Part shown: one piece after another, positions 27,879 through 63,258 of the stretch
Numbering within the stretch: the stretch's first letter is position 1
Layout of the letters: the number at the start of each line of letters is the position of its first letter
DNA from: Micavibrio sp.
GTDB taxonomy: Bacteria > Pseudomonadota > Alphaproteobacteria > Micavibrionales > Micavibrionaceae
Reading direction: 5' to 3'
NCBI GenBank assembly: GCA_030824805.1
Contig: JAPJRC010000004.1
Coordinates: 10,355 to 74,354, forward strand
Length of the DNA stretch: 64,000 bases
Program-made: the position numbers and the translations under genes
Notes under the pieces: model-generated
What the model was told of the DNA's origin: nothing
What the model saw: the letters and a program-made list of their open reading frames with translations, nothing else
The model's database searches: none

Positions 27879-27954
27879 GCCCAGGTAGCTCAGTCGGTAG
27901 AGCAAGGGATTGAAAATCCCTGTGTCGGCGGTTCGATTCCGTCCCTGGGCACCA
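27879..27954 (+). tRNA. tRNA-Phe (anticodon GAA); prophage integration target
   Basis: GCCCAGGTAGCTCAGTCGGTAGAGCAAGGGATTGAAAATCCCTGTGTCGGCGGTTCGATTCCGTCCCTGGGCACCA: canonical cloverleaf, anticodon loop TTGAAAA, CCA encoded. Confidence 0.95.
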
Positions 27955-28100
27955 CAAAAATCCCGCTATTATTTAAAAACCCAATCAAATATCATTCGAA
28001 AACAATAGCTTAACTTTATCTATTGCATAAAGCCTTATGCGTGTGCTTTAAAAATGTCACACAAAATGATACACAAACTGTACCACCTTGGCATTTTAGC

Positions 28101-29417
28101 ATGAGCGATTACCTGCACAATCGCAACGGGCGCTATTATTACCGTCGACGCGTTCCTTCAGAGGTGGCTTCATACGACAATCGCGAGACGGTATGCATAT
28201 CCCTTAAAACGAATGACGTGCGAGCCGCCAAACGAAAGGCGGATATCTATAATGAACAGATCGAGGAATATTGGCGATCACTGATAGTGACGGGATCCAC
28301 TTATGAGGAGCAAAGCTACAAGCAGGCTGTAGCAATCGCGCGGGCGCATGGCTTTAATTATAAGTATGCAGCCGACATTGCAAAATCGCCAATACAAGAG
28401 ATTGTCGACCGCGTGCTCCTGGTGCAATCAAACCAGAACCCAGAAATGGTCGCAGGCATCCTTGGCGGTGTGGATCAACCCGAGCTCTTGATCAGTGAGT
28501 GCCTAGATAAATATTGGCCGCTTTGCGTGGATAGGCTTACCAAGAAATCCGATCAACAAATACACCGATGGAAGACTTTAAGAACCACTGTCATGAAGAA
28601 CTTTTTGCGCATCGTCGGTGATAAGCCGATCGCCAAAATAGACAGAAAAGATGTGATGATACTTAAGGAATATTGGGCGCAAAAAATTGCCAAGCGCGAG
28701 CGCTCGACCGACACAGCAAACAAACAGATACGGATTGCTAGAGATATCCTGCAGACTGTTGCTGACCATGCAGGCATGGAACTGGATTTTACGAAGCCTT
28801 TTGCGAAGACCAACTTCAAGCGCTCCACAAACTCACGGCCGCCTTTTGATGCAAAATATGTACAGAATGTAATTTTGGCGCCCGGGGCTCTGCCGACTTT
28901 GAATGATGATTGTAAATATCTCATCTATGCAATGGCTGATCTGGGCGCGCGACCATCCGAGCTTGTGGCGCTAACCCCCAAAGACATCTTCCTGGACGCC
29001 GACATACCATTCATTTGGATCCGGCCTTCTATCGATCGCGAATTAAAAACAGAGCATAGTGAACGTCAAATACCTTTAGTAGGCGCTGCGCTCTTTGCCT
29101 TCAAGAAAATGCCCGATGGCTTCCAACGCTATGCCACCGCCGACAGCGCATCCGCGGCAATCAACAAATACCTTACGACACGGGATTTGCTTCCAACGCC
29201 GCAGCATAGCCTGTACAGTCTTCGCCACACATTCAAAGACAGGTTACGGGATGCCGGCGCCCCGGAAGAAGTGATAGACTCATTGATGGGACACGAGACA
29301 AACCGACCGAAATACGGCCGCGGCCACAACTTGGAAACCAAGAAGAAATGGCTAGAAAAGATCGCCTACAATCCACCTGCCGGCGTTGAATCAATGTCGA
29401 CCCAGCAATTCGTTTAG
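28101..29417 (+). CDS. int: tyrosine-type site-specific integrase
   Basis: C-terminal catalytic R...HxxR...Y region (LRHTFKDRLRDAG...LMGHE) and an N-terminal arm-binding domain; start MSDYLHNRNGRYYYRRRVP. Confidence 0.9.
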   Translation: MSDYLHNRNGRYYYRRRVPSEVASYDNRETVCISLKTNDVRAAKRKADIYNEQIEEYWRSLIVTGSTYEEQSYKQAVAIARAHGFNYKYAADIAKSPIQEIVDRVLLVQSNQNPEMVAGILGGVDQPELLISECLDKYWPLCVDRLTKKSDQQIHRWKTLRTTVMKNFLRIVGDKPIAKIDRKDVMILKEYWAQKIAKRERSTDTANKQIRIARDILQTVADHAGMELDFTKPFAKTNFKRSTNSRPPFDAKYVQNVILAPGALPTLNDDCKYLIYAMADLGARPSELVALTPKDIFLDADIPFIWIRPSIDRELKTEHSERQIPLVGAALFAFKKMPDGFQRYATADSASAAINKYLTTRDLLPTPQHSLYSLRHTFKDRLRDAGAPEEVIDSLMGHETNRPKYGRGHNLETKKKWLEKIAYNPPAGVESMSTQQFV

Positions 29418-30041: not shown

Positions 30042-30692
30042 CTAATAAGAATCGCGCAAAGGCTCGACGTCCTTTACGCCCGTAGAATTCATAGAGGGAT
30101 TCATCGCAGTGATCTCGAACATCGACGCCGGCAGTGTTGGGATTGTCTCAACAGTCGAGCGTCCGGGATCCAGCCAGTCATCCACGTAGTCTGTAATTAT
30201 CGGAACACGGTGATGGTATTGTCGAACAACCCCCTCTGATTCAGTGGTGACGATCGAAAAAGAAACAAGCCACTCATTCTCGATCTGCGTGTGATTGTAA
30301 ATACCTGCCAGGTTGATTAGACTGCCGTCTTTTCGCGAGAATTTGTAAGGCATCTTACGCTTCCGCTCCCCCTCTTCGCGCCACTCGTAGAAAGCTTCGC
30401 AAGGAATTATGCACCGGCGCTTTGCGTAGGGAGTCTTGAAGCTCGACTTTTCAGTGATAGTTTCTGCCCGCGCATTGTGTAAAGTTGGAAGCTTTTCGAG
30501 GTTGCGCACCCACGATGGCACGAGCCCGAAGCGCGCCAAATGCCAGTGCGCGCCGTTTTCGTCGTTGCAAAGGATGGGCGTTATGCCTGTAGGCGGCAGA
30601 TTGGGATCATACTCGAAATTGAAAGCGGGCGAAGAGGCAAAACACTCCAATAGGCGGTTTGCGTTTCTTGGCGATTGAAATCGTGCACACAT
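30042..30692 (-). CDS. SOS-response-associated peptidase (SRAP/YedK family, abasic-site processing)
   Basis: Begins MCARF (catalytic Cys2 of SRAP), blocks PSWVRN...HNARAETI...KRRCIIPCEAFYEW...FSIVTT; start set at MCARF. Confidence 0.85.
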   Translation of the reverse strand: MCARFQSPRNANRLLECFASSPAFNFEYDPNLPPTGITPILCNDENGAHWHLARFGLVPSWVRNLEKLPTLHNARAETITEKSSFKTPYAKRRCIIPCEAFYEWREEGERKRKMPYKFSRKDGSLINLAGIYNHTQIENEWLVSFSIVTTESEGVVRQYHHRVPIITDYVDDWLDPGRSTVETIPTLPASMFEITAMNPSMNSTGVKDVEPLRDSY

Positions 30693-31097
30693 GAACCTCA
30701 ATATGGTGTTTCAATCGATAAAAAGCGAGAGGGATAGCGCCCTTTGGCAGGCGTGCCCTCACTTTTTTGACTGATTAAGGTTTGGCAAACCGGAAAGTTC
30801 CAGACATGCGAAGCTCCTCCTATTGTATGATAAATTACCTCCGTCCCGGACATGCGGGATCTACTGGTTACCAGCGTAGTCAGTAAAGCGAGAGAAGTTC
30901 ATGGTTTAAAGCGTTGGCGCGCTTTAACTAGAATTGGGAAAGCAGATGGTTAATTTCTGATATGCAATTAGTGGAATAAATCTTAAGGATTTGACGATCA
31001 CTTTTCAAGCGGCAGCACTACCATTTTATTGAAAATTAAAAAAATTTCCTATAGGATGATACATTAGACATCCTGAAAGTATAACGGCCAGCCCACC

Positions 31098-47000: not shown

Positions 47001-48284
47001 TTAGGCCGTCTTCTTGATCGTCGACGGACGGAATGCTTGCTGTGCGGCCAGCAATGGGTTTTTCTGCTGCCCGCCTTCTGAAGATGGTTTAAGGGCCGGC
47101 TGATGATGTGAACGCATTGTGTTAGCAAACGTTTTATCTTCTTCAGCCGCCGCGGCAGGTGCCTTTTCAAGCAGCTTAACGGCCGCTTCGGGCAACATAT
47201 CTGAGTTGAAAGCCAGTTCTTGCGCAAGCTCCTCACGCCCCTTTGCGGAAGCATGGCTCAGAATGGCAGAAATTCTGGCCCGCTCAACTTGTGCCGCAGC
47301 TTTATCTTTGTCGCCTTCGGTTTCTTCACCTTCACCTTCATCGCCTTCGGTTTCTTCACCTTCACCTTCATCGCCTTCGGTTTCTTCACCTTCTTTGGCG
47401 GCGGCAGGGGAATTTTTCTTACCGCCTTTGTCATTTTGTGCCTTTGGGTTTTTGGCGTCCGGTTTTACTTTAGTTTTCATGGCAAGCTCCTGTGTTGTCG
47501 TAGTTTCGTTGGAATTAAAGGTTTCGATAAGCTGTGAAAGGTAGCCTATATCATCGGCAAGCCCGATATCGACGCCCAATGCGCCGCGGTAGGTGCTGGC
47601 TTCCGTAGCTTTAATGGATTCTCTGTCTACGCCGCGGTTTTCAGCAACGGCGTCCACGAACATATCCCGTAAGTAATCCATATCGGCTTGATAACGGGCC
47701 TGCGCTTCTTCGGTTAACGCTTTGTATGGGGATCCGTCTGCTTTATGTGCGCCGGAATGGATGTGCGTAACACTGACACCCCACGCTTCCATCATTTTTG
47801 AATAATCGAAGTGGCTCATAATCACGCCAATGGATCCAACTTCTCCCGCTGGCTCAACCACAATGCGTGACGTTGCAGACGCCAACCAATAAGCTGCGCT
47901 GTCCGCCATGGCACAATGGGAGACAATTGTGACGGTCTCACCGAGAGCCTGAAGCTTTTCTGCCGTTTCTGCGCATCCCATGACAGTGCCGCCGGGCGAA
48001 TTAAACGCAAGAACAACTGTTTCCACGCCGTGCTCTTCCCGGACGTGTTCAATGGTGGCCAGAATGCTTTCATATGTGATGTTGGCAAACCAATACCATC
48101 CACTGATGCGCGCGGTAGAGATGCAACCATTGACAGGAATGACCGCAACCGAGCCATCAAGTTGGTACCGAAGAGCGTGATGCCCAAAATTTTCTGTCGA
48201 AACAAGAGCCGCCAGCTCTTCTTCAGACATTTTGTTGGGGCGTTGAAGATCTACACGCAGGTGATTTAGATAATAATCATGCAT
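47001..48284 (-). CDS. head maturation protease / scaffold (S49 ClpP-like, lambda gpC/Nu3-like) with acidic repeat
   Basis: S49 motif FNSPGGTVMG and SHCAMADSAAY; an internal (EGEGEETEGD)x3 repeat and a helical C-terminus. Confidence 0.85.
   Translation of the reverse strand: MHDYYLNHLRVDLQRPNKMSEEELAALVSTENFGHHALRYQLDGSVAVIPVNGCISTARISGWYWFANITYESILATIEHVREEHGVETVVLAFNSPGGTVMGCAETAEKLQALGETVTIVSHCAMADSAAYWLASATSRIVVEPAGEVGSIGVIMSHFDYSKMMEAWGVSVTHIHSGAHKADGSPYKALTEEAQARYQADMDYLRDMFVDAVAENRGVDRESIKATEASTYRGALGVDIGLADDIGYLSQLIETFNSNETTTTQELAMKTKVKPDAKNPKAQNDKGGKKNSPAAAKEGEETEGDEGEGEETEGDEGEGEETEGDKDKAAAQVERARISAILSHASAKGREELAQELAFNSDMLPEAAVKLLEKAPAAAAEEDKTFANTMRSHHQPALKPSSEGGQQKNPLLAAQQAFRPSTIKKTA
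47311..47393. repeat. 30-bp tandem repeat, 2.8 copies, inside the protease/scaffold gene
   Basis: tcgccttcggtttcttcaccttcaccttca repeated perfectly at 47311, 47341 and a partial copy at 47371. Confidence 0.95.
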
Positions 48285-52102: not shown

Positions 52103-52628
52103 TGCTCATTTGTTTTAGCAGCTTGGAGTTTTCCTCATCTATGACTGCCCGGATCTCACGAACATCTGTCATTGTTGAAAATTTCTCTGCAAGCCGGCGT
52201 GAATTACTTTTAAGCTGATCGCGCAGTATTTGTCCTGCGGCGGACACCGCCTTTGTGACGTCTGGCTTTGCAAGGGTGTCCCCCTTGCGGTGTGCAAGAT
52301 CGAGCTTTTCGTTCTCTAGCTTCGTTTTTTCGCGGTCTGTGCGAACAGCTTCAAAAGTGCCCACATTCGATGCAGGCCTATCGGATGCAGGCTTACCAGA
52401 TCCGCTCATATGCGACATGCTCCTGGAAGGATCGCGGGCATTCCGCAATATCTCGTCAGCCAGGTCAGCATCGATTTTTAAGACGCCGTCGCTGTCCGCC
52501 CTCATGGCAGGCTCCAACCGTGTCTTCATCTGGCCTTTCGACAGGTAGGCTTTGGAAACCTTCTTGTATTTTCCATCGTCCTGAAGAATGCCACGCGCGG
52601 CATATTCCGCCTTGGTCATCAAGGCCAT
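52041..52628 (-). CDS. terminase small subunit (putative)
   Basis: 195-aa basic protein overlapping the terminase start. Confidence 0.55.
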   Translation of the reverse strand: MALMTKAEYAARGILQDDGKYKKVSKAYLSKGQMKTRLEPAMRADSDGVLKIDADLADEILRNARDPSRSMSHMSGSGKPASDRPASNVGTFEAVRTDREKTKLENEKLDLAHRKGDTLAKPDVTKAVSAAGQILRDQLKSNSRRLAEKFSTMTDVREIRAVIDEENSKLLKQMSNDFLRRLPTLEDTGGSVTTH

Positions 52629-52629
52629 G

Positions 52630-52872
52630 TTATTTTCTGGCCTTCAACGGATAGCAACCAAAACAGGTGCAATTATCGCGATGCGACTGTTTCTTGGCGG
52701 TTACGAACTGTCCGGTTTCCTTGTCGCGATGATCGTTCTTCCGCGCCTTCTCCAGATCCGCCTGTGCTTTGGCTAACCGGTCGCGCAGCAGACTGTTTTC
52801 AGTTCGGCACCCAACCGTTTCGGCGATAGCTTTTTCATACGTTCTACGTGAGACAAATGGAAACACAAACAT
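52630..52872 (-). CDS. small hypothetical protein upstream of the terminase genes
   Basis: 80-aa basic ORF with C-terminal CTCFGC; 2-bp gap to terS. Confidence 0.35.
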   Translation of the reverse strand: MFVFPFVSRRTYEKAIAETVGCRTENSLLRDRLAKAQADLEKARKNDHRDKETGQFVTAKKQSHRDNCTCFGCYPLKARK

Positions 52873-53924
52873 TCATTCCTCCAAATGCATTTCAGGACGT
52901 AGGTAGGGAGCCTTGTACAGGTAATCCTGCTGGTCAGAAGTCCAAAATATGACCGTCTTATGCGATTGTCGCCGCCCAGTGCGCTTCTGCTTTGCACAGT
53001 GTTCGAAACACCACCCGTCCATGACTGTTGTCTGCCCCCTGGCCTCAATGGCACTATTGGCTCACAGGTTTCACGACAACAGACAAAGAAGAATTGCGTG
53101 TCTTTCCAAGCCGTCATCACGATGTCGCGTTAGCCAGCATCGGAGCCAGCGTCCCGGTACCTTTCCCGGTTGTCAACGGAACATTTCCCCGCCCAGTCAG
53201 CTTTGGAGCTAGCAACTGACTACCCCCAGATGGCATCCCTCCGAATCTATGCGCTCTCAGCCATCCGTCGGTTCCGGAAAAGCGCATACGAGTTTTAGAA
53301 CGAGGCAGGGCTTGATACCTGCTGAAACTGGCACACCTACCAATCCGGATAAGGTAGGTGCTTGGTCTGGTTTGCGCCGTTGACCCGCGCCGAATACGAG
53401 TGCGGACCAGACTTGTTTCGCTGCGTTAGTCAAAGGGGGCTTCTCTCGATCATCCCCACTATTCCAGTTGCGTTTCCTTCAACGCCGCCCGTCCATGTGT
53501 GCCGTGTTCTGGTTATCAGCAATGGCCGGACGATACCGATACCAAATCTACGAACCATAGGCACGACATACAAAGAAGGATTGCTGTCTCTCCAGCTGTC
53601 ACACCAATCTGATGTTTGACGATACCTGCGCCGATATCGAAGCCTACCGGATCTTCTCCTGAATTAACGCTGCGCTAACTCGCTCACCAAAAATCTTTCG
53701 CAGGGCAACTTTAGAAGACACTACAGAATCTTTTTCATGACAGCCTCCATTGCAAGACTGTGAGTAAACGGTAAACCTCAATTTCATTCTATCAGGTTGA
53801 TAAATTTACGGTTTACCAACCAATCCGGTTAACTCGGTTAACCTCGATTTTAAACCCATTGACTAGAAAACCCCTGCGCGTCGCCGCCCCGCATGCCTAC
53901 CAGAAGGGGGAAGGACCCGTGAAA

Positions 53925-53949
53925 GCCGCAGAAATCTGCGGTTTCTTCT
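53925..53949 (+). terminator. plus-strand hairpin plus T-tract inside the non-coding region
   Basis: GCCGCAG-AAAT-CTGCGGT followed by TTCTTCT. Confidence 0.4.
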
Positions 53950-54117
53950 AGGCTAGGTCGAGGCGGGGAGCGATGCGCAGGGCGTACAGAATCCATAACA
54001 TGACAAAATGCATGCAGGGTGTACGTAGTTGAGGGGAAAGAGAGAGAAATGAAAAAGAGGTGGCCACCGGCACACCTCTTACGAATAAATAATCTATGTC
54101 ATTTCGTGCATGCACGG

Positions 54118-54825
54118 TCAACTATTTTCTTTGTCGATGATGACGTAGCCTTTGTCGGGTGTCGTGTGATCATCTGACGCTATGCCAACCATCGCAGAAC
54201 TCCGCCGTTTTCCTTGGAGCATCCGTTTGTAGTCTTCACCCATTAACTCGAGAGCAGCCTGTACCGTGCCAGTCCAGTAGTCACGAGATTGCGTCCCCAT
54301 TTGATTCGCAAGCGATTTGATATCCCTCTTGAAGCCCACGATATGGACCACCGCAAGAGACATACGCGAAGTCGGGCCACCCAATGCCTTAATGGTAGTA
54401 TGCACGTAATTGCGAGCGTCAGCACTGCGTGTGAGAATATCCTCTATGCCCACACCGCCACCGTGTGTGCCAACCAGATTGGTGGTACGGCAGCGGTCAT
54501 ACCCACATCGTTCGAAATCATCACCGAACGCTCTGCCTGCGTGATATGCGTTGTCCGTGATAACGCCTGCCTCGCGCCACCTGTCCAGCTGATCCTTCAC
54601 ACGATTGCCTTGATCGTTAGCACCGAATGTGGCCCTGACCGTTTCGCGAACGATGGGAGCCTTGGCGTTACCGAAACGCGACACCGGCACACCGTACCGC
54701 GGATCCCTGATATATTCCTCATGGTCGTTCTGGAAGCGTGCCAGCTGGGCCATAAAGCCCAGGCTATGGGCCGCCTGTTTCAAAGATTTCCCAACAACAC
54801 TCACGGCTTGCTCGAGCGTTCTCAT
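54118..54825 (-). CDS. phage hypothetical protein (replication/late-regulation module)
   Basis: Start MRTLEQAV with RBS GGAGGTG; no motif recognised. Confidence 0.6.
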   Translation of the reverse strand: MRTLEQAVSVVGKSLKQAAHSLGFMAQLARFQNDHEEYIRDPRYGVPVSRFGNAKAPIVRETVRATFGANDQGNRVKDQLDRWREAGVITDNAYHAGRAFGDDFERCGYDRCRTTNLVGTHGGGVGIEDILTRSADARNYVHTTIKALGGPTSRMSLAVVHIVGFKRDIKSLANQMGTQSRDYWTGTVQAALELMGEDYKRMLQGKRRSSAMVGIASDDHTTPDKGYVIIDKENS

Positions 54826-55571
54826 GCCACACCTCCGAGGCGTTGCACTTTCGCCGCATGACGGTTGCGCAGGTGGCGTTCGGTCGAGATAAACCAGTTC
54901 CGATGCGCAGTGGCATCCTGCGTGTCCAACCATTTGCCGCGTGCTACCAGTTCCGCATCAAGCTCATCTTCAGAAAACTCTGGGAATTTAGCCCGCCAGG
55001 CTTGGTAATCCCGCTTGGCAAGACGAATGCAGCCCTGCTGGAAGTAGTAATCTTCAGCTGATTTTGAACCGGATATATATATATTATTTATATTTTTCTT
55101 TTTTGGTTCTTTTTTCTTTTTATCCGGCGATCGGTTGTAATTTCTTGAAGCCACTGATTTTTCAAACGAAATTACATCCCCTGTATTTTGTTTAAACAAA
55201 TCGCCCGATATCGTGCTGCCACGCAACTTGGGGTTACCCCCGCCAGCCTTGGCCACGCGGCTACGTGTCGCGGAAAGCTCGGACGCCTGGCGGATCTCAG
55301 GATCAAAATACGCACCACTCTCCCCGTCACGCTCCAGCAACTCGAGGCCGCAAAGATCATTCAGGATACGCGCTACGACCCCTTCATCCAGCCTGCACAG
55401 ATCGGCCACAAAGGTTGCAGTGCAATCCCGCTGGCCGACTCGCAACCACCCACCCGATCCGATTGCTATCATGCGCAGCTTGAACAATACCAGTTCAGCA
55501 ATGTGATCCAGCGCACAGATGCGAAGATCCCCCATCCACTCTGTCGGGTCGATGGTTAATTTACGTTTCAT
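54822..55571 (-). CDS. phage replication-associated protein (DUF1376-like)
   Basis: 249 aa immediately downstream of dnaB with a Lys-rich linker. Confidence 0.5.
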   Translation of the reverse strand: MKRKLTIDPTEWMGDLRICALDHIAELVLFKLRMIAIGSGGWLRVGQRDCTATFVADLCRLDEGVVARILNDLCGLELLERDGESGAYFDPEIRQASELSATRSRVAKAGGGNPKLRGSTISGDLFKQNTGDVISFEKSVASRNYNRSPDKKKKEPKKKNINNIYISGSKSAEDYYFQQGCIRLAKRDYQAWRAKFPEFSEDELDAELVARGKWLDTQDATAHRNWFISTERHLRNRHAAKVQRLGGVA

Positions 55572-55582
55572 CCGTTCTCTCC

Positions 55583-57004
55583 TTACGGTTGGTTATGATT
55601 TTCGTCGTAGAAATATTGACGCACCCCATCAAAGCGACATCGTACGGATGCAATCTCGCCTTGGCGGAATTTGCCAATAATAATTTCAGCTGCGCCCTCT
55701 TCCGCATGAACAAGCTCTGTCCATGCCTGATATCGGTCGTTGAATTTGTCCTGACTTTCGCTGGCGCGACGGTGTGGCTCTTCCTTTTTAAGGTAGTACT
55801 CCGGCCGGTATGGGAACATGATCAAGTCAGCGTCTTGTTCTATGGCGCCGGAATCGCGCAGGTCGGCGAGCGAGGGTCGCTTATCTTCACGGTTCTCAAC
55901 GCTGCGGCTAAGCTGGCACAACAATGCAACGTGAACATTCAGCTCTTTTGCCATTGCCTTCAGACGTTGCGTAATCTCTTCGAGCTGATGCACTTTGTTG
56001 GCGTTGTTGTTTGTGGGCCTGATAAGCCCAAGATAATCGACAACAACCATATCCAATCCGCCATATCGTCGTTTCATTCGCTTGGCACGGGAAGCAATTT
56101 GCCCTGCTGTAAGCGACCCAGTTTCATCTAGCAAGACAGGCAATTTTTTTAGCTCTTGTTGTGCCTGACGCAACGCCACCATATGCTCAGGGGACAGCGC
56201 CTTGGTCCTGCGCATCATGCCCATGGGAAGGCCCGTTTTACGCGCGAGAAAACGAAGGCCAAGTTGTGCATTCTGCATCTCCAGCGATTGGAACAGCACC
56301 CTATGCCCCGCACGCGCTGCATTGACGGAAATGCTCAAAGCCAGAGCGGTCTTGCCCATCGATGGGCGCGCCGCAATGATGCTCAGCTCTCCGCGTTCAA
56401 ATCCGCAAATTTTTTCGTCGAGCGCTGCTATGCCGGAAGCAATGCCGGTGACTTCCCCGCGTTGCGCACGATCGATCATATCCATTGTTTGTTCAAGCCC
56501 GTCCCCAAGCTCAACGGCTTCCTTTTCCGCCGCGCCGCGATCTGAAAGCGCATAGATCAATGTCTCCGCCTCGGACACGATGTCCCGTGTTGGTCGATCA
56601 ATTTCGTAATTCTGCGCTTGATCGATCATAGCGAAAGCGGTGGTGATAATATTTCTGCGCGTATAATAATCGACAAGCTGTCGTGCATAATCACGGGCGG
56701 AATTGAGACGCGGCACGTATGTCGCCAGATCCACGATATATTTTCCGCCGCCCACGGAATCCAGCGCACCGTCTGCCTCGAAATACTTTCGCACCGTCAT
56801 GGCTGCCGCGTCACCTGTGGCGGCATAGCTTTTGACGATCACATCATAAATCTTACCATGTGTTGGATGGGAGAAGTGCTCTGCGCGCACATGTTCTGCT
56901 ACAGCTTCGATCTGCCGGTTATCGAGCATCATCATGCCCAGCAAGCCATGCTCACAGTCCAAATTATGCGGCAAATGTTCGCTATCAATTCTTGTCATTA
57001 CCAC
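55583..57004 (-). CDS. dnaB: replicative DNA helicase, DnaB family
   Basis: N-terminal DnaB domain (LPHNLDCEHGLLGMMM), RecA core with Walker A (ARPSMGKTALAL), Walker B LVVVDYLGLI. Confidence 0.95.
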   Translation of the reverse strand: MVMTRIDSEHLPHNLDCEHGLLGMMMLDNRQIEAVAEHVRAEHFSHPTHGKIYDVIVKSYAATGDAAAMTVRKYFEADGALDSVGGGKYIVDLATYVPRLNSARDYARQLVDYYTRRNIITTAFAMIDQAQNYEIDRPTRDIVSEAETLIYALSDRGAAEKEAVELGDGLEQTMDMIDRAQRGEVTGIASGIAALDEKICGFERGELSIIAARPSMGKTALALSISVNAARAGHRVLFQSLEMQNAQLGLRFLARKTGLPMGMMRRTKALSPEHMVALRQAQQELKKLPVLLDETGSLTAGQIASRAKRMKRRYGGLDMVVVDYLGLIRPTNNNANKVHQLEEITQRLKAMAKELNVHVALLCQLSRSVENREDKRPSLADLRDSGAIEQDADLIMFPYRPEYYLKKEEPHRRASESQDKFNDRYQAWTELVHAEEGAAEIIIGKFRQGEIASVRCRFDGVRQYFYDENHNQP

Positions 57005-57441
57005 ATTTTCCCATTCGGCATGACATGCGTTTGCTTAACTTTGACGATCTTGCGGCTGACGACAGGAACATGCTCGGCGCAGTATGTTTTCCCACGCTCT
57101 GTACGCTCACCACAGAAACCAAAACCCGGCTCGCCGGGGGAACCAAATGAGTAACGACACATGCATGGTCCAAGGTCCAGCAATGATGTCAATGCTTCGG
57201 GACGAAATGGGGGTTTCAGCGGTATCTTTCTCCTTTTCTGGCAAGTCTTTCCATTACTGCCGGGCTTGTTGCCGCGCGCGCGCGGTTCAGTCACCGTTTT
57301 TAGTTTTAGACGATGCACCTTCCCCATTATCGCGCTGCGCGTTTTTCCCATCAGTTGGACAATCTCGGGCGACGTTTTCCCAGCGCTCCATAGCGCTTTC
57401 AATGTTTCTATTTCTTCATCAGTCCAAGAGTTGCTCTTCAT
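56998..57441 (-). CDS. gcrA: GcrA cell-cycle regulator family protein (phage-encoded)
   Basis: N-terminal WTDEEIETLKALWSAGKTSPEIVQLMGKTRSAIMGKVHRLKL and C-terminal Cys-containing GcrA domain (CQ..PL....FCG....YC.EH). Confidence 0.8.
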   Translation of the reverse strand: MKSNSWTDEEIETLKALWSAGKTSPEIVQLMGKTRSAIMGKVHRLKLKTVTEPRARGNKPGSNGKTCQKRRKIPLKPPFRPEALTSLLDLGPCMCRYSFGSPGEPGFGFCGERTERGKTYCAEHVPVVSRKIVKVKQTHVMPNGKMW

Positions 57442-58073
57442 GCGCGGCCCCTTGACGATGGGCTTTGTTTAAACGTGGGTTCGCCAACACGCGCAGGAAT
57501 ACGCATCACACCCCCGATGACTTCCGGACGAACGCCTGTATAATTTTCTCCCGAAGCATTCAATATTGGCTCATAGTGCCCCCACCCTTTGTCTTTGTGC
57601 ACTTTACGGGCGTAACCTTTTGACACCAAAGCGATCATGGAATCACGAATGCCTGCGGCGTCCCTGTGCACTCTTTCCGCTATCATCGATAGTCCGATAT
57701 CTTTTAGGCACGATTCCCAGCAGTTGATCAGCGCAATAAGGCATTGCTCTTGCAGGTTTGGTAATTTCGCTCTCTTGGATATTATTGGCTCAAGCAGTTT
57801 TGACGACGCATAGCCTAGAACATCCTCGACATACGAAACATAAGATCGATCCTCGCGACCTGCAGGCTTTCCGCCATCCACGCTCGCGCTTGGGCTTTTT
57901 TCTGCGGTAACAACAACAATTTCTTCCGGAGAAACAAGGAAAGCTTGGTTATCGGAAGAGCATCCACTTTGCAAAAAATTTAAGATTTTTTCTGCATTTT
58001 CAACAACGGTATCGGACTGCATCTTCAATGCCGCCTCAACACACCATTTTCGCAATTCTAAAGTGTCGCTCAT
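57438..58073 (-). CDS. phage hypothetical protein
   Basis: 211-aa ORF, 4-bp overlaps on both sides. Confidence 0.55.
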   Translation of the reverse strand: MSDTLELRKWCVEAALKMQSDTVVENAEKILNFLQSGCSSDNQAFLVSPEEIVVVTAEKSPSASVDGGKPAGREDRSYVSYVEDVLGYASSKLLEPIISKRAKLPNLQEQCLIALINCWESCLKDIGLSMIAERVHRDAAGIRDSMIALVSKGYARKVHKDKGWGHYEPILNASGENYTGVRPEVIGGVMRIPARVGEPTFKQSPSSRGRA

Positions 58074-58426
58074 GCATGCACCTGAAGCAGGCGCTTGCGC
58101 CCATCATCACTGGTTATACCTGCCAGCGCTTGATAAAGTTCAGCTCCTCGCGGCACACGCATGAATACAAGCTTCGCTTTCGGATTGCTGACATAAGGCT
58201 CACCGTCCGAAAATTTTAACGGCTTGAGCTCTACATTTTTTTTGTCATACCGGATTTGCTCCACGAAGCCTTTGGATTCCAGTTCTTTCACGATGGCGCT
58301 GACCCGTTGGCTGCATATGCCAGTTTTTACTACAACATCGTTCTGTTTGATCTCATCCGAACGCTCATCCCATAAAGAGATGATTGCATCAAGAACCTTT
58401 CTTTGTGAATATTTGAGCTCTCTCAT
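58070..58426 (-). CDS. winged-helix (MarR-like) DNA-binding protein
   Basis: SQRKVLDAIISLW...NDVVVKTGICSQRVSAIVKELESKGFVEQ. Confidence 0.6.
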   Translation of the reverse strand: MRELKYSQRKVLDAIISLWDERSDEIKQNDVVVKTGICSQRVSAIVKELESKGFVEQIRYDKKNVELKPLKFSDGEPYVSNPKAKLVFMRVPRGAELYQALAGITSDDGRKRLLQVHA

Positions 58427-58517: not shown

Positions 58518-58784
58518 CTAAGCGGGCGTGCGGTCGGATACGGCGATAAAACTTTTATAGGTCACAACGCCGCCCGAGATTTCTTCGATCGCAGAAAGCC
58601 ACTCCCAACCAGGACGGCTTTTTTTCCTCCGCCATTTGGCGACATTTTTTGAAAGATTAAGAATCACCAGCTCATACTCGGCAGCGCTCTCGCTGGCATG
58701 TCTGGGCCGCAGATCACGAGCGAATTTCGTGCTGCTGATTTTCTTTTCGGTCAGGAATTGATCCAAGGAGGGCGGGGCGTTCAT
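58518..58784 (-). CDS. Cro-like HTH regulator
   Basis: 88 aa, divergent from the CI-like gene; HTH-like LDQFLTEKKISSTKFARDL. Confidence 0.55.
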   Translation of the reverse strand: MNAPPSLDQFLTEKKISSTKFARDLRPRHASESAAEYELVILNLSKNVAKWRRKKSRPGWEWLSAIEEISGGVVTYKSFIAVSDRTPA

Positions 58785-58792
58785 TTTCAGAT

Positions 58793-58813
58793 AATACGCA
58801 TGATAGGCGTATT
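58793..58813. promoter_or_regulatory. third copy of the TACGC-N7-GCGTA operator in the cro/cI intergenic region
   Basis: AATACGCATGATAGGCGTATT is the reverse orientation of the 63.2-kb operator, with a TTACGC half-site 16 bp downstream. Confidence 0.55.
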
Positions 58814-58880
58814 TCTGTCAAGCATCTTACGCCTGTAACGATATTTATTTATCTAACCATTTGTGTTTAATGAGTTTATT

Positions 58881-59408
58881 ATGCCTAGACCTAAAAGAAA
58901 AAATCGTTTTGCAAGGCCAGCGGTTGTATTGAAGATCATTCGCGAAAGCCTGGGACTAACTCAGTCGAATTTGGCCGCACTTGCCACGGACATCGCCCAG
59001 AAGGTTGATGAGGAATATCCTGAAATTACCCAGCAAACAATTGGTAAGCTGGAGAATGGTACCATCTCTTTATCGACAGAATGGATGCATATTTTGGTTC
59101 CAGCCCTCAATGCAAAAGTTGGCTACAATCGATACAAGCCATATCACCTGGCTGCCACCCCGGAAGAGCTGGACACGCTCTTGAACGAAAACGATGCTTC
59201 CCAATACGAAAAATTGCGTGCCAATCTTACGGCCCAAGAACAAGCGGCTTTTGACGCCGTCACTAAAGGGTGGTACGACACCCTTGTTGGTTCTCGGGAA
59301 GCCACTGAATTGGACAAGATGCGCAACAGTTTGACGGAGAAGGAACAAAAGGTTTTCGACGCAATGGCCAAAAGCTCTCTCGAAGCCATCAAGAACATGC
59401 GGAAATAA
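58881..59408 (+). CDS. CI-like HTH repressor (no peptidase domain)
   Basis: HTH VLKIIRESLGLTQSNLAALATDIAQ; start at MPRPKRKN. Confidence 0.65.
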   Translation: MPRPKRKNRFARPAVVLKIIRESLGLTQSNLAALATDIAQKVDEEYPEITQQTIGKLENGTISLSTEWMHILVPALNAKVGYNRYKPYHLAATPEELDTLLNENDASQYEKLRANLTAQEQAAFDAVTKGWYDTLVGSREATELDKMRNSLTEKEQKVFDAMAKSSLEAIKNMRK

Positions 59409-59419
59409 CCGGAGGAAAC

Positions 59420-59617
59420 ATGTCCATAGAAGCTTTGGTAGTTATCATCGTTGCGCTTGTTATTTACGTTTTGCCCTCATTGATCGCAGACAACAGAAAA
59501 CACTATAATTTCAAGGCCATACTTGCGGTGAATATCCTTACGGGATGGACCGGTTTCGGATGGATTGCGGCCCTGGTCTGGGCATTGACAAACAACGTCC
59601 GCCCAAGGCTCGCCTAA
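59420..59617 (+). CDS. superinfection immunity protein (Imm family small membrane protein)
   Basis: 65 aa, two TMs, the GW...GWIAALVWAL signature shared with T4 Imm-like proteins. Confidence 0.7.
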   Translation: MSIEALVVIIVALVIYVLPSLIADNRKHYNFKAILAVNILTGWTGFGWIAALVWALTNNVRPRLA

Positions 59618-60076: not shown

Positions 60077-60724
60077 ATGGTTATGCCGAGTCAATTTCGA
60101 GCCGCTAGAGGGCTCCTCAATCTTAAGCAACAAGACGTTGCTGAAGGTATCGGCGCGGCCAAAATGACCGTATCCGATCTTGAAAACGAGAAGTCTCAGC
60201 CAAAAGCACATACCGTTGATATGATGCGCCGCTTCTATGAGAGCCGGGGTGTGGAGTTCACGATCGATGGCGGCGTTCGCCCCTCTTCCAATTCTATCCA
60301 GATATTCGACGGTCCGGACTGTTACTTCCAGTTTATCAACGAGGCGCATTCCTATCTCGCGGCGCGTAAGGGTGAAATCCTGTTCAGCGGTGCCGACGAC
60401 CGTCGCTCTCCACCCGAGATCATCGAGAAGTTCCGCACCATGAAAGACGATGGCATTCGCATGCGCTCGCTGATCCGTCCGAATGATGACTATATCTTGG
60501 GCGGGCCGGAAGAATATCGCTGGATGCCGGCAGACCTGTTTGTCGAAGGCGATGTGAAGGCGATCTTTGAAGACCGCGTGGCATGGCTGGTCAGCTGGCT
60601 GAACAACCCCCGCGTTATTATGATCAAAGACCCGATCATCGCGCAGGAAGCCACCCGTACGTTTAACTTCATTTGGAGCCAGTCGGAAGGCCCGACGGAA
60701 TCCAGCGCGCCGGAGAGATATTGA
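60077..60724 (+). CDS. XRE-family HTH fused to an unknown ~140-aa C-terminal domain
   Basis: N-terminus has the alphaproteobacterial short-HTH pattern (FRAARGLLNLKQQDVAEGIGAAKMTVSDLENEKSQP...RGVEF); the C-terminal domain is unrecognised. Confidence 0.7.
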   Translation: MVMPSQFRAARGLLNLKQQDVAEGIGAAKMTVSDLENEKSQPKAHTVDMMRRFYESRGVEFTIDGGVRPSSNSIQIFDGPDCYFQFINEAHSYLAARKGEILFSGADDRRSPPEIIEKFRTMKDDGIRMRSLIRPNDDYILGGPEEYRWMPADLFVEGDVKAIFEDRVAWLVSWLNNPRVIMIKDPIIAQEATRTFNFIWSQSEGPTESSAPERY

Positions 60725-61421: not shown

Positions 61422-62690
61422 TCAGCATCTCACCACCGGCAGTTCCTTAATATTCGTCGTAAAACATGGGCTCTTGCGGTCGAATTTGGTCCGCCATGTT
61501 GGCCTTACCCCCGCCGCCAGTGGTGCGATGCTCCCCCGCCCATACCGGTGGTTTATCCGGTCCATGGCCTGCATAAGATCGTCTGCCTTCTCCCGGTTGC
61601 CATATCCGTCCAGAAGTGCCGGTTGGTACTGGCTGATCGGTGAAAGATCCATCGTCATGATCCCACCTTTCATGTACCGCCTGCCCCGCTCCCAGCAATG
61701 TTGAACGACAGACTTGGCCGCGCCGACAATACGAATGGTATCGTTCGTGGTTTCAGGGAAATTGACCGTCATGGCGCTGTATTTGTAATCGGGCTCGTGC
61801 GGCGAGGTATGGAAGAACACCACCACGCTGTTGGCGCCCAGATTATCCTTCCGAAGCTTTTCCCCCATCCGTACGGCGTAAAAAGCCATAGCCTCTTCCA
61901 GACCGTCTTTCGTCGTGATGCGCTCGCCGAACATCCGGGAAACGGTGCAGCCCTTCCGGATCGGCGGAACGTCTTCCAGCGAGAGGCAGGACAATCCCCG
62001 CAGCTCGTATACGAGACGCTCCCCCACGACGGTCATCAGCTTGCGGGCCGATGTGGTCGGGAAGCTGATCAGGTCGTCGACATATTCAATCCCGAGCTTG
62101 TTCAGCTTGGCCGTCGACGCGAGCCCTATTCCCCACACTTCGGACACCGGAACAACCTCCGTCACCTCTTTGAATGTTTTCGGGTTTGTCAGGTCGCACA
62201 CGCCTTTGAATTCGGGCACATGCTTTGCCGTCCAGTTGGCAAGCTTTGCCAGCGTCTTTGTCGGGCCAATACCCACGCAGGTCGGAATGCCTGTCCATTG
62301 TTTTACTGTGTCCTTAAGCTCGGTTCCGAACTTGACCAGGTCGAGCCCCTTGAAGGCCGTAAGATCGAGAAAGCTTTCATCGATCGAGTAGGTTTCGATA
62401 TCGGGACAGAATTGCCGGTAGATCTCGTTCATCCGTGCGGACATATCGCCATAGAGCGTATAATTCGATGAGAACACCGCCACGTTGTTTCGCTTGCACA
62501 GGTCGCGGATTTTAAAGAACGGATCACCCATTTTTATACCGACGGCCTTTGCCTCCGCGGTTCGGGCCACGGCGCAGCCATCATTGTTCGACAGGACGAT
62601 AACGGGCCTCTTCTCCAGCTTTGGATCGAACACGCGCTCGCAGGAGCAGTAAAAGGAATTGCCATCGATCAGCGCGAAGACCCTGCTCAT
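61422..62690 (-). CDS. umuC: Y-family DNA polymerase V catalytic subunit
   Basis: [23 protein letters not shown]..., ImpB/MucB/UmuC family. Confidence 0.9.
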
Positions 62691-63130
62691 CGTTGCACCA
62701 GCATATGGATGTTGCAGCGGACCACGCCCCATATCTCGATATCAGATTCATCCGATGTGTTGAACTCGGGAAACTCCCTGTTATCGAAGGCAAGATGCGG
62801 GCGGCCCTTGATGTATTTGAGGCGCTTAAGGGATCTCTCCCCGTTTACCACCGCGATGACGATATCGCCGTTCTGAGGCTTGAGGCTTCGATCGATGACT
62901 AGGATATCGCCGCTGTATATCCCCGCATCTTTCATGGAATGGCCGATCACCCGCCAGAGAAACGTGGCCGGCTTGTTCCGGATCAGCTCGGTTTCAAGAT
63001 TGATGGGCTCGTCCAGATAATCACCCGCGGGGGATGGAAATCCGGCGCAGATGCTTTCCTGCACCATAGGCAGGACAAGGCCGCTGGAATTGCTTGGCCT
63101 GTTTTTCGTTGTCGGGATAAATGAGAACAT
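62687..63130 (-). CDS. umuD: UmuD-like LexA-family S24 peptidase
   Basis: Cleavage-site region [12 protein letters not shown], Ser/Lys dyad (GHSMKDAG...KRLK); start ambiguous (63067, 63130 or 63157); ATGA overlap with umuC. Confidence 0.85.
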
Positions 63131-63139
63131 AAAGGGAAC
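63125..63139. promoter_or_regulatory. candidate alphaproteobacterial LexA (SOS) box GAAC-N7-GAAC
   Basis: GAACATAAAGGGAAC at the umuD 5-prime end (equivalent to GTTC-N7-GTTC on the coding strand). Confidence 0.5.
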
Positions 63140-63203
63140 GGAAACATAGGAGAACACCCTGAGTCAAATTAATTTCAAAACTGAAAAATCGATTATTTAA
63201 ATA

Positions 63204-63258
63204 ATTACGCCTATCATGCGTATTTACGCTTGACATGATTACGCCTATCATGCGTAAT
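63204..63258 (+). promoter_or_regulatory. promoter (TTGACA at 63230-63235) flanked by two copies of the TACGC-N7-GCGTA operator
   Basis: ATTACGCCTATCATGCGTA at 63204-63222 and ATTACGCCTATCATGCGTAAT at 63238-63258; -10-like CGTAAT 17 bp after the -35; drives the 63280 gene. Confidence 0.6.

Follow-up and report, generated by a model that had tools for sequence, protein, structure and literature searches.

Among bacterial readers of N6-methyladenine, GcrA is the best understood, and it is unusual as an activator in that it travels with sigma-70; the model of its mechanism used here comes from work on Caulobacter crescentus (PMC4647560, PMC5887438, PMC9976885). The C. crescentus protein, the product of a chromosomal cell-cycle gene, is 173 aa long and has two domains joined by a disordered linker of ~60 aa (5YIU/5YIV/5YIW for the DNA-binding domain, 5YIX for the sigma-interacting domain together with domain 2 of sigma-70, and 7YE1/7YE2 for the activation complexes). 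Homologues were reported in 2012 from 5 of 6 phiCbK-like phages and proposed to push the infected swarmer cell towards replication (PMC3556154), and a ‘GcrA-like cell cycle regulator’ is annotated in Caulobacter, Brevundimonas, Brucella and Rhizobium phages (PMC11836647, PMC13459779), the hypothesized role being manipulation of sigma-70 transcription or of the cell cycle (PMC3556154, PMC13459779). Phage-encoded PF07750 proteins include phiCbK gp222 and those from Senya and Shash, two phages of Caulobacter, the phiCbK-like ones being full length. Here we describe a gcrA-like gene in a 64,000-nt stretch of Micavibrio sp. DNA (assembly GCA_030824805.1, contig JAPJRC010000004.1, positions 10,355 to 74,354, forward strand; hereafter the window, to which all coordinates refer), where it lies in the early lytic operon of a prophage and overlaps the start of dnaB.

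The prophage protein shares the two-domain plan and the disordered linker of C. crescentus GcrA but is shorter (147 aa, with a basic linker of 35 aa) and is encoded in a lytic operon rather than by a chromosomal cell-cycle gene. It further departs from the C. crescentus protein by the changes N34S, I37M, W120Y, D124S and Y151S (C. crescentus numbering, as for all such changes below), by an X10 spacer in place of X9 between zinc ligands, and by a weak basic patch. The annotated phage GcrA-like proteins are ~33% identical to it (tblastn E 1e-2 to 9e-5), and their carriers are for the most part virulent phages of large size or jumbo phages (190-350 kb), whereas the gene described here overlaps dnaB and belongs to a lambda-like temperate prophage of a Micavibrio-like host. 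We consider it probable that its product is a compact GcrA-family sigma-70 cofactor, part of the prophage and not of the host's cell-cycle circuit, which is expressed from the lytic operon. The gene and the parts of its product, given as coordinates, strand and description, are:

56998..57441, minus strand: gcrA-like gene, 147 aa plus stop, ATG start (Pfam GcrA and PDB GcrA matches)
57301..57429, minus strand: N-terminal helix-turn-helix (HTH) DNA-binding domain, residues 5-47 (5yiu match; AlphaFold2)
57196..57300, minus strand: short basic linker, residues 48-82, with 11 K/R and 2 D/E in 35 aa
57055..57195, minus strand: C-terminal CCCH zinc-finger domain, residues 83-129, homologue of the sigma-70-interacting domain (5yix_B match; Foldseek)
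57001..57054, minus strand: C-terminal tail, residues 130-147, with 5 K/R, a weak counterpart of the GcrA basic patch

The PF07750 GcrA profile matches the 147-aa protein with E 3.9e-24 (86.2 bits; gathering score 26.9) over residues 5-131, which correspond to profile positions 2-147 of 155, and a PDB sequence search recovers C. crescentus GcrA (7ye1_G) with E 4.5e-18. The two halves also match on their own: residues 4-46 align with the DNA-binding domain 5yiu (E 5e-9), and residues 77-129 align with the domain that interacts with sigma-70, 5yix_B (E 6e-8). These matches bear out the preliminary description, made from the sequence alone, which had called the gene a full-length GcrA homologue with both domains, and alignment to Caulobacter GcrA places the similarity in the two domains and not in low-complexity sequence. 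The protein is confirmed as a full-length, very divergent member of the GcrA family. Low-complexity similarity was considered as an explanation and rejected, as two structured domains match independently and the low-complexity linker adds nothing to the match.

The divergence is considerable. The prophage protein is at most 45% identical to every other GcrA-family protein. Among 1.84 billion cluster representatives it stands alone at 50% identity, and no other representative scores below E 1e-30; PF07750-like proteins account for 13,378 clusters at 50% identity (E 1e-3 or better). The closest homologue that could be placed (P0002, 40% identity) probably lies on IMG/VR viral contig 3300032282_004730, and the placeable nearest relatives as a group are on viral contigs. 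Six relatives of 480-714 aa (P0133, P0134, P0140, P0147, P0198 and P0241) have an architecture unlike that of GcrA, each consisting of tandem arrays of HTH modules in which the DNA-binding domain of GcrA is matched separately 6-11 times.

The residue comparison draws on a HMMER alignment and on published structures and mutants of C. crescentus GcrA (PMC5887438), and an AlphaFold2 model of the 147-aa protein was built from 11 sequences. In the model the predicted local distance difference test (pLDDT) exceeds 90 over most of both domains and the linker is disordered (pLDDT <50 for residues 54-70), as is part of the corresponding C. crescentus stretch of ~60 residues, where 88-104 are disordered in the crystal (PMC5887438). 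The HTH domain comprises three helices (8-19, 24-31 and 35-45; block pLDDT 89-96), and 8 of 10 DNA-contact residues are identical to those of C. crescentus: W3, W15, T32, R33, G38, K39, H41 and R42, represented in the prophage protein by W6, W18, T34, R35, G40, K41, H43 and R44. Among these, R33 and R42 of C. crescentus are hydrogen-bonded directly to GANTC, at its G and at the G that faces its C (PMC5887438).

The zinc-finger part of the model superposes on 5yix_B with a root-mean-square deviation of 1.4 Å over 43 columns (template modelling score 0.76, Foldseek), and the best structural match of the whole model in the PDB is 7ye1_G. The zinc ligands are spaced C95-X14-C110-X10-C121-X2-H124, with one residue more in a spacer than in C. 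crescentus (C-X14-C-X9-C-X2-H), and an alignment with 29 homologues shows W6, R44, C95, G100, F107, C110, C121 and H124 to be invariant. Substitution of K119, W120, D124, G129, F130, F132, Y142 or Y151 abolished the two-hybrid signal between C. crescentus GcrA and sigma-70 (PMC5887438); at these positions G129, F130, F132 and Y142 are identical in the prophage protein, and K119R and W120Y are conservative. On the sigma-70 side, the groove residues include L128, L129, G133, A136, K139, R140, A143 and R462 (C. crescentus numbering). The tail is modelled poorly (block pLDDT 58 for residues 131-147), and the C. crescentus basic patch (157-173) is likewise disordered in the crystal (PMC5887438).

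The gene is embedded in a leftward lytic operon of co-oriented genes in the order orf88, orf118, orf211, gcrA-like, dnaB, orf249, orf271. Its neighbours and the divergent repressor region are:

58863..59408, plus strand: CI-like HTH repressor, divergent from the lytic operon (HTH_3; phrog_3 transcriptional repressor)
59420..59617, plus strand: superinfection immunity protein of 65 aa, right after the repressor (Imm_superinfect 66.5 bits)
58795..58821, minus strand: probable early lytic promoter, TTGACA ... TATTAT, with the 17-nt inverted-repeat operator TACGCCTATCATGCGTA (read by eye)
58518..58784, minus strand: orf88, first gene of the operon, in the Cro/CII position (open reading frame, ORF; position read from the sequence)
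58070..58426, minus strand: orf118, MarR/DUF7343-type winged-helix protein (DUF7343 28.6 bits against a cutoff of 27.6; phrog_3502)
57438..58073, minus strand: orf211, weak winged-helix protein (HrcA_DNA-bdg E 0.0047, below cutoff)
55583..57004, minus strand: dnaB-type replicative helicase (DnaB_C 264 bits, DnaB N-terminal domain 79 bits; phrog_19)
54118..55571, minus strand: orf249 and orf271, ORFs at the end of the early operon, 3' of dnaB

Consecutive genes overlap closely. The start of the gcrA-like gene overlaps the stop of orf211 in an ATGA (57441-57438), orf118 and orf211 meet in another 4-nt ATGA overlap, and, if dnaB translation begins at GTG 57004, its start overlaps the end of the gcrA-like gene, whose stop is TAA (57000-56998), by 7 nt; with the alternative dnaB start ATG 56998 the junction reads TAATG (57000-56996). 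The overlap with the dnaB start claimed in the preliminary description is therefore evident from the junction sequence itself, with DnaB confirmed by Pfam, and the assignment of the gene to the replication/early module of a prophage agrees with the neighbouring genes. Since stop and start codons overlap on both sides of the gcrA-like gene, translational coupling is likely. No family match was found for orf88, no PDB or PHROG match for orf211, and no Pfam, PHROG or PDB match for orf249 and orf271.

The prophage context rests on an integrase at tRNA-Phe, on portal, capsid and terminase genes, and on the CI-like repressor and the Imm_superinfect gene, and the earlier claim in this respect stands. 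As the operon diverges from the repressor and immunity genes, the gcrA-like gene is best regarded as an early lytic gene and not as cargo expressed in lysogeny. It does not have the setting of a chromosomal, vertically inherited gcrA: it is found in an island at tRNA-Phe, in a lytic operon and among phage genes.

Phage homologues of GcrA are not rare. The novelty implied by the preliminary description does not hold, given the reports since 2012 (PMC3556154) and the frequency of such genes in viral contigs, and a single locus of this kind will not surprise a specialist, being a new, divergent example of known phage GcrA-like cofactors. A tblastn search of INPHARED gave nothing at E 1e-5 and 95 phage records at E 1, so that the first negative reflects a limit of sensitivity and not absence; the matches to the phiCbK-like ‘putative GcrA-like cell cycle regulator’ proteins cover residues 2-125. 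At least 290 IMG/VR viral contigs encode a relative recognized by one degenerate pattern, and the viral GcrA-like genes fall into PHROGs 12262, 16311 and 323.

As in the prophage, the GcrA-like genes of IMG/VR contigs are found repeatedly in replication/early neighbourhoods, some of them, unlike the prophage gene, together with a methyltransferase. Of 80 viral loci, 18 encode a DnaB homologue on the same strand at a distance of up to 5 kb, often directly downstream, and 8 encode a beta-class DPPY methyltransferase; about 10 of 68 unique viral loci pair the GcrA-like gene with a DNA methyltransferase. In a Pfam census of the two nearest co-oriented genes on each side, the neighbours in viral loci include DnaB, DUF1376, PDDEXK nucleases, RusA, MT-A70, N6_N4 methylases, NusG-like proteins, GapR and DnaA_C. 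GcrA-like genes are thus regular members of the early modules of viral contigs, many probably from alphaproteobacterial phages. The gcrA-like/dnaB arrangement is recurrent in viral contigs; particular to the present case are how far the protein has diverged, how tightly its gene overlaps dnaB, the small size and temperate nature of the prophage, and the predatory host. In a number of loci (L003, L078, L082, L040-L043, L067 and others) the GcrA-like gene is recurrently adjacent to adenine methyltransferases or, in 3 loci, to a NusG-like gene, which suggests phage-borne writer-reader pairs and links to the control of transcription elongation.

What was observed, namely membership of the GcrA family, a two-domain architecture, the zinc ligands and most contact residues, a predicted fold, the place in the operon and the prophage context, is the basis of the proposed function; sigma-70 binding, a DNA site and activation would follow from it by analogy with C. 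crescentus. The gcrA-like gene comes third or fourth in the leftward lytic operon and would be transcribed from the repressor-controlled promoter; because of the likely translational coupling, its product would appear along with the replication proteins, shortly after induction or infection. Before the promoter is bound, the C-terminal CCCH zinc finger would dock on the host's housekeeping sigma factor at domain 2, and the N-terminal HTH, on its short basic tether, would read a GAnTC-like site near the promoter. Holoenzyme carrying the GcrA-like protein might then load preferentially at a subset of promoters and be helped to open them, the candidate targets being phage middle/late promoters, the host GcrA regulon, or both. 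We tend to favour a role within the temporal programme of the phage itself, because Pfam, PHROG and PDB searches of the lytic-operon ORFs recognized no other RNA-polymerase-binding or Q-like regulator and because a NusG-like gene is a neighbour in 3 viral loci. Small phage proteins that retarget host RNA polymerase or sigma, such as lambda Q and T4 MotA/AsiA, provide a functional analogy only: GcrA binds sigma domain 2 and the non-conserved region, not region 4 or the beta flap, and there is no known kinship in sequence or fold. A compact, dnaB-overlapping copy in a small temperate prophage offers a tractable system for the roles of phage GcrA proteins, and poses the questions of whether late phage promoters, the host S-phase regulon or a block of host GcrA is concerned and whether activity depends on CcrM methylation.

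Several observations weigh against this proposal. The methyl-group pockets of C. crescentus GcrA are formed by R33, N34, I37 and G38 (PMC5887438); R35 and G40 of the prophage protein are kept, and the other two of the four are changed (N34 to S36, I37 to M39). The 160 closest relatives contain 168 instances of the recognition-helix motif, of which 27 have S at position 34 and 9 have M at position 37, and a C. crescentus I37W mutant activates independently of methylation (PMC5887438). With the N34S and I37M substitutions, the prophage protein may not read methylation at all. The prophage encodes no DNA methyltransferase, its intergenic DNA (~9.5%) holds 5 of its 53 GANTC sites and is thus not enriched, and the early promoter has no GANTC. 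The C. crescentus consensus YGAKTCG occurs 3 times in the prophage, always within genes, against roughly 7 expected (this expectation and the intergenic one are our own arithmetic), and a published scan for GcrA motifs in alphaproteobacterial phage genomes found no positional signal (PMC9437464). At the sigma-70 interface, D124S and Y151S are non-conservative, and alanine at either position broke the C. crescentus two-hybrid interaction; the alignment with 29 homologues shows that the substituted interface positions vary in other family members too. Finally, our literature search found no functional test of a phage GcrA homologue.

The suggestion in the preliminary description that the phage taps host cell-cycle and methylation signalling is still a hypothesis, with partial support. 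The alphaproteobacterial host, the retained R33 and R42 and the depletion of GANTC are in its favour, and the altered pocket, the lack of a prophage methyltransferase and the unenriched sites count against it or are neutral. GANTC stands at 0.43 of the mononucleotide expectation in the window, i.e., ~2.3-fold depleted (host part, 46 vs. 106; prophage, 53 vs. 123), and CTNAG is even rarer; depletion of at least 2-fold has been described in CcrM-bearing Alphaproteobacteria, a bias that may have other causes (PMC3973325). The GANTC sites of the prophage, enriched neither at promoters nor in intergenic DNA, lend no support to a wiring through methylation sites. The methylation part of the first reading is plausible and unsupported by the distribution of sites.

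One region has some bearing on the candidate phage targets:

52873..54117, minus strand: ORF-poor spacer of 1.25 kb between the early operon and the late (terS) operon, with 3 GANTC sites

Two of these 3 sites share the 9-mer GATTCTGTA (53722-53730 and 53985-53993, minus strand), which is found nowhere else in the window; the lead is weak and post hoc, as 3 of 100 shuffles gave two or more matches. The spacer may hold a late promoter or a regulatory RNA. It has no Rfam family at the gathering threshold, and a scan of 52500-54300 at E<=1 returned only a chance-level sR18 (E 0.6; 54135-54179), outside the spacer. A hairpin is present at about 53921-53945, with a fold that is not significant (z = -1.5). 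A bolder version of the proposal, in our view a long shot, is that the altered pocket, to be compared with the methylation-independent I37W mutant, reads unmethylated or hemimethylated GAnTC-like sites, and that the protein, made along with the helicase, senses phage DNA that is newly replicated and under-methylated and switches host sigma-70 RNA polymerase to the late operon, for instance via the two GATTCTGTA copies of the spacer, which would constitute a replication-coupled switch in place of a Q-type antiterminator.

The chief alternative to a phage temporal programme overlaps with it and differs only in the targets: the protein would replace or boost host GcrA and drive the S-phase regulon of the host, with its genes for replication, nucleotides and division, so that a cell that is not replicating becomes able to support the synthesis of phage DNA. 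Such a take-over is the published hypothesis for phiCbK-like phages, including gp222 (PMC3556154, PMC9437464), and we consider it unlikely here. It gains from the co-expression with dnaB and from the retained base-reading residues R33 and R42. Micavibrio-like predators have a non-replicating attack phase, which we also count in its favour. The low identity to other GcrA proteins and the viral affiliation of the placeable relatives, however, speak against a recent copy of the host regulator, and the methyl-pocket residues differ. An opposite effect on the host would result if the protein occupied the GcrA groove of sigma-70, or GcrA sites on DNA, without activating, and thereby shut host GcrA-dependent division genes or freed RNA polymerase for phage promoters. 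The changes at D124, Y151, N34 and I37 and the linker of 35 instead of ~60 aa could uncouple binding from activation, and C. crescentus GcrA without its DNA-binding domain binds sigma-70 and barely stimulates promoter opening (PMC5887438). We nevertheless regard competitive inhibition as improbable, as both domains are intact and conserved, suggesting selection for DNA and sigma binding, and no finding points specifically to a loss of activation.

The coupling to dnaB could instead reflect a stoichiometric partnership, with the protein binding the phage origin or recruiting or loading DnaB. The overlap of its stop with the dnaB start, the DnaB homologues near 18 of 80 viral loci, the recurrence of DnaA_C, DUF1376 and DnaB as neighbours and the absence of a DnaC/P-type loader recognized by Pfam and PHROG searches of the replication module would all suit this idea. 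We give it still less credence than inhibition, since the conserved C-terminal domain is a sigma-70-binding zinc finger, 62 of the 80 viral loci have no DnaB nearby and a search for iteron- or origin-like repeats around the gene returned only short two-copy matches. We know of no replication role for the GcrA zinc-finger domain. Least probable of all is a lysogenic-conversion gene that alters the cell cycle of the lysogen, or a decaying, non-functional cargo gene, even though GcrA is listed as a cargo gene of S. meliloti prophages (PMC12429752) and C. crescentus NA1000 has an extra GcrA paralogue, gcrB (PMC3885167). The gene is overlapped on both sides within a lytic operon that lies opposite the repressor and immunity genes, the promoter scan found no minus-strand promoter of its own, the ORF is intact and all the family-invariant residues are kept.

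The early lytic promoter was not flagged by the sigma-70 promoter scan, its spacer being 18-19 nt; the scan as a whole found 7 promoters against 7.3 expected from shuffled sequence. Exact copies of TACGCCTATCATGCGTA occur 3 times in the window against 0.1 expected: one inside the early lytic promoter (58795-58811, minus strand) and two (63206-63222 and 63240-63256, plus strand) just upstream of umuD/umuC (62687-63157 and 61422-62732). The lytic operon and the genes of the error-prone polymerase probably answer to one repressor, LexA-like or phage CI-like, and the operator shared with umuDC suggests that DNA damage triggers induction; no S24 peptidase domain is present in the CI-like protein. 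Between the Imm_superinfect gene and umuC are a second HTH protein (60077-60724) and a 247-aa ORF.

The lambda-like prophage spans at least 32 kb and is inserted at tRNA-Phe (27879-27954). On its far side from the lytic operon are:

28023-29417: integrase, adjoining tRNA-Phe
30042-30701: SRAP gene, after the integrase

The minus-strand structural block encodes tail fibre, Phage-tail_3, tape measure, tail tube, capsid protein E, gpD and an S49 protease, together with a lambda-type portal, gpW, TerL gpA and TerS. Up to the last base of tRNA-Phe (27954), the window runs collinear with a 1.47-Mb contig from a relative (Joint Genome Institute, JGI), the DNA identity being 77-80% in coding blocks and 92% over tRNA-Thr; the window lacks what follows tRNA-Phe in the relative (Ada, Ogt and other genes). 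Because synteny stops at 27954, the insertion must be at least 36 kb and run past the window end; no att repeat of the tRNA-Phe 3' end is present in the window, and the right end of the island lies beyond 64000. The island (27955-64000) also carries DNA-damage cargo, namely SRAP and UmuDC.

The chromosomal part of the window (1-27800) encodes ZapE, dGTPase, MurA and RNase G. The closest proteins to MurA are metagenomic, at 88-92% identity; of those with a name, the best is from Micavibrio sp. (88%), and the next matches are metagenome-assembled genomes of Alphaproteobacteria and Rhodospirillales at 74-76%. By these comparisons the host appears to be a Micavibrio-like alphaproteobacterium, presumed to be an epibiotic predator. 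Micavibrio is filed under Bdellovibrionota at NCBI; genome phylogenies and GTDB place it within the Alphaproteobacteria, and the next-best MurA matches fit that placement. Our literature search found no description of Micavibrio prophages and nothing that joins Micavibrio with GcrA or CcrM. Within the structural block, the S49 head-maturation protease/scaffold gene (47001-48284) contains three tandem 30-nt repeats at 47297-47393 (plus-strand CACCTTCACCTTCATCGCCTTCGGTTTCTTCACCTTC), which probably encode a repetitive acidic protein segment.

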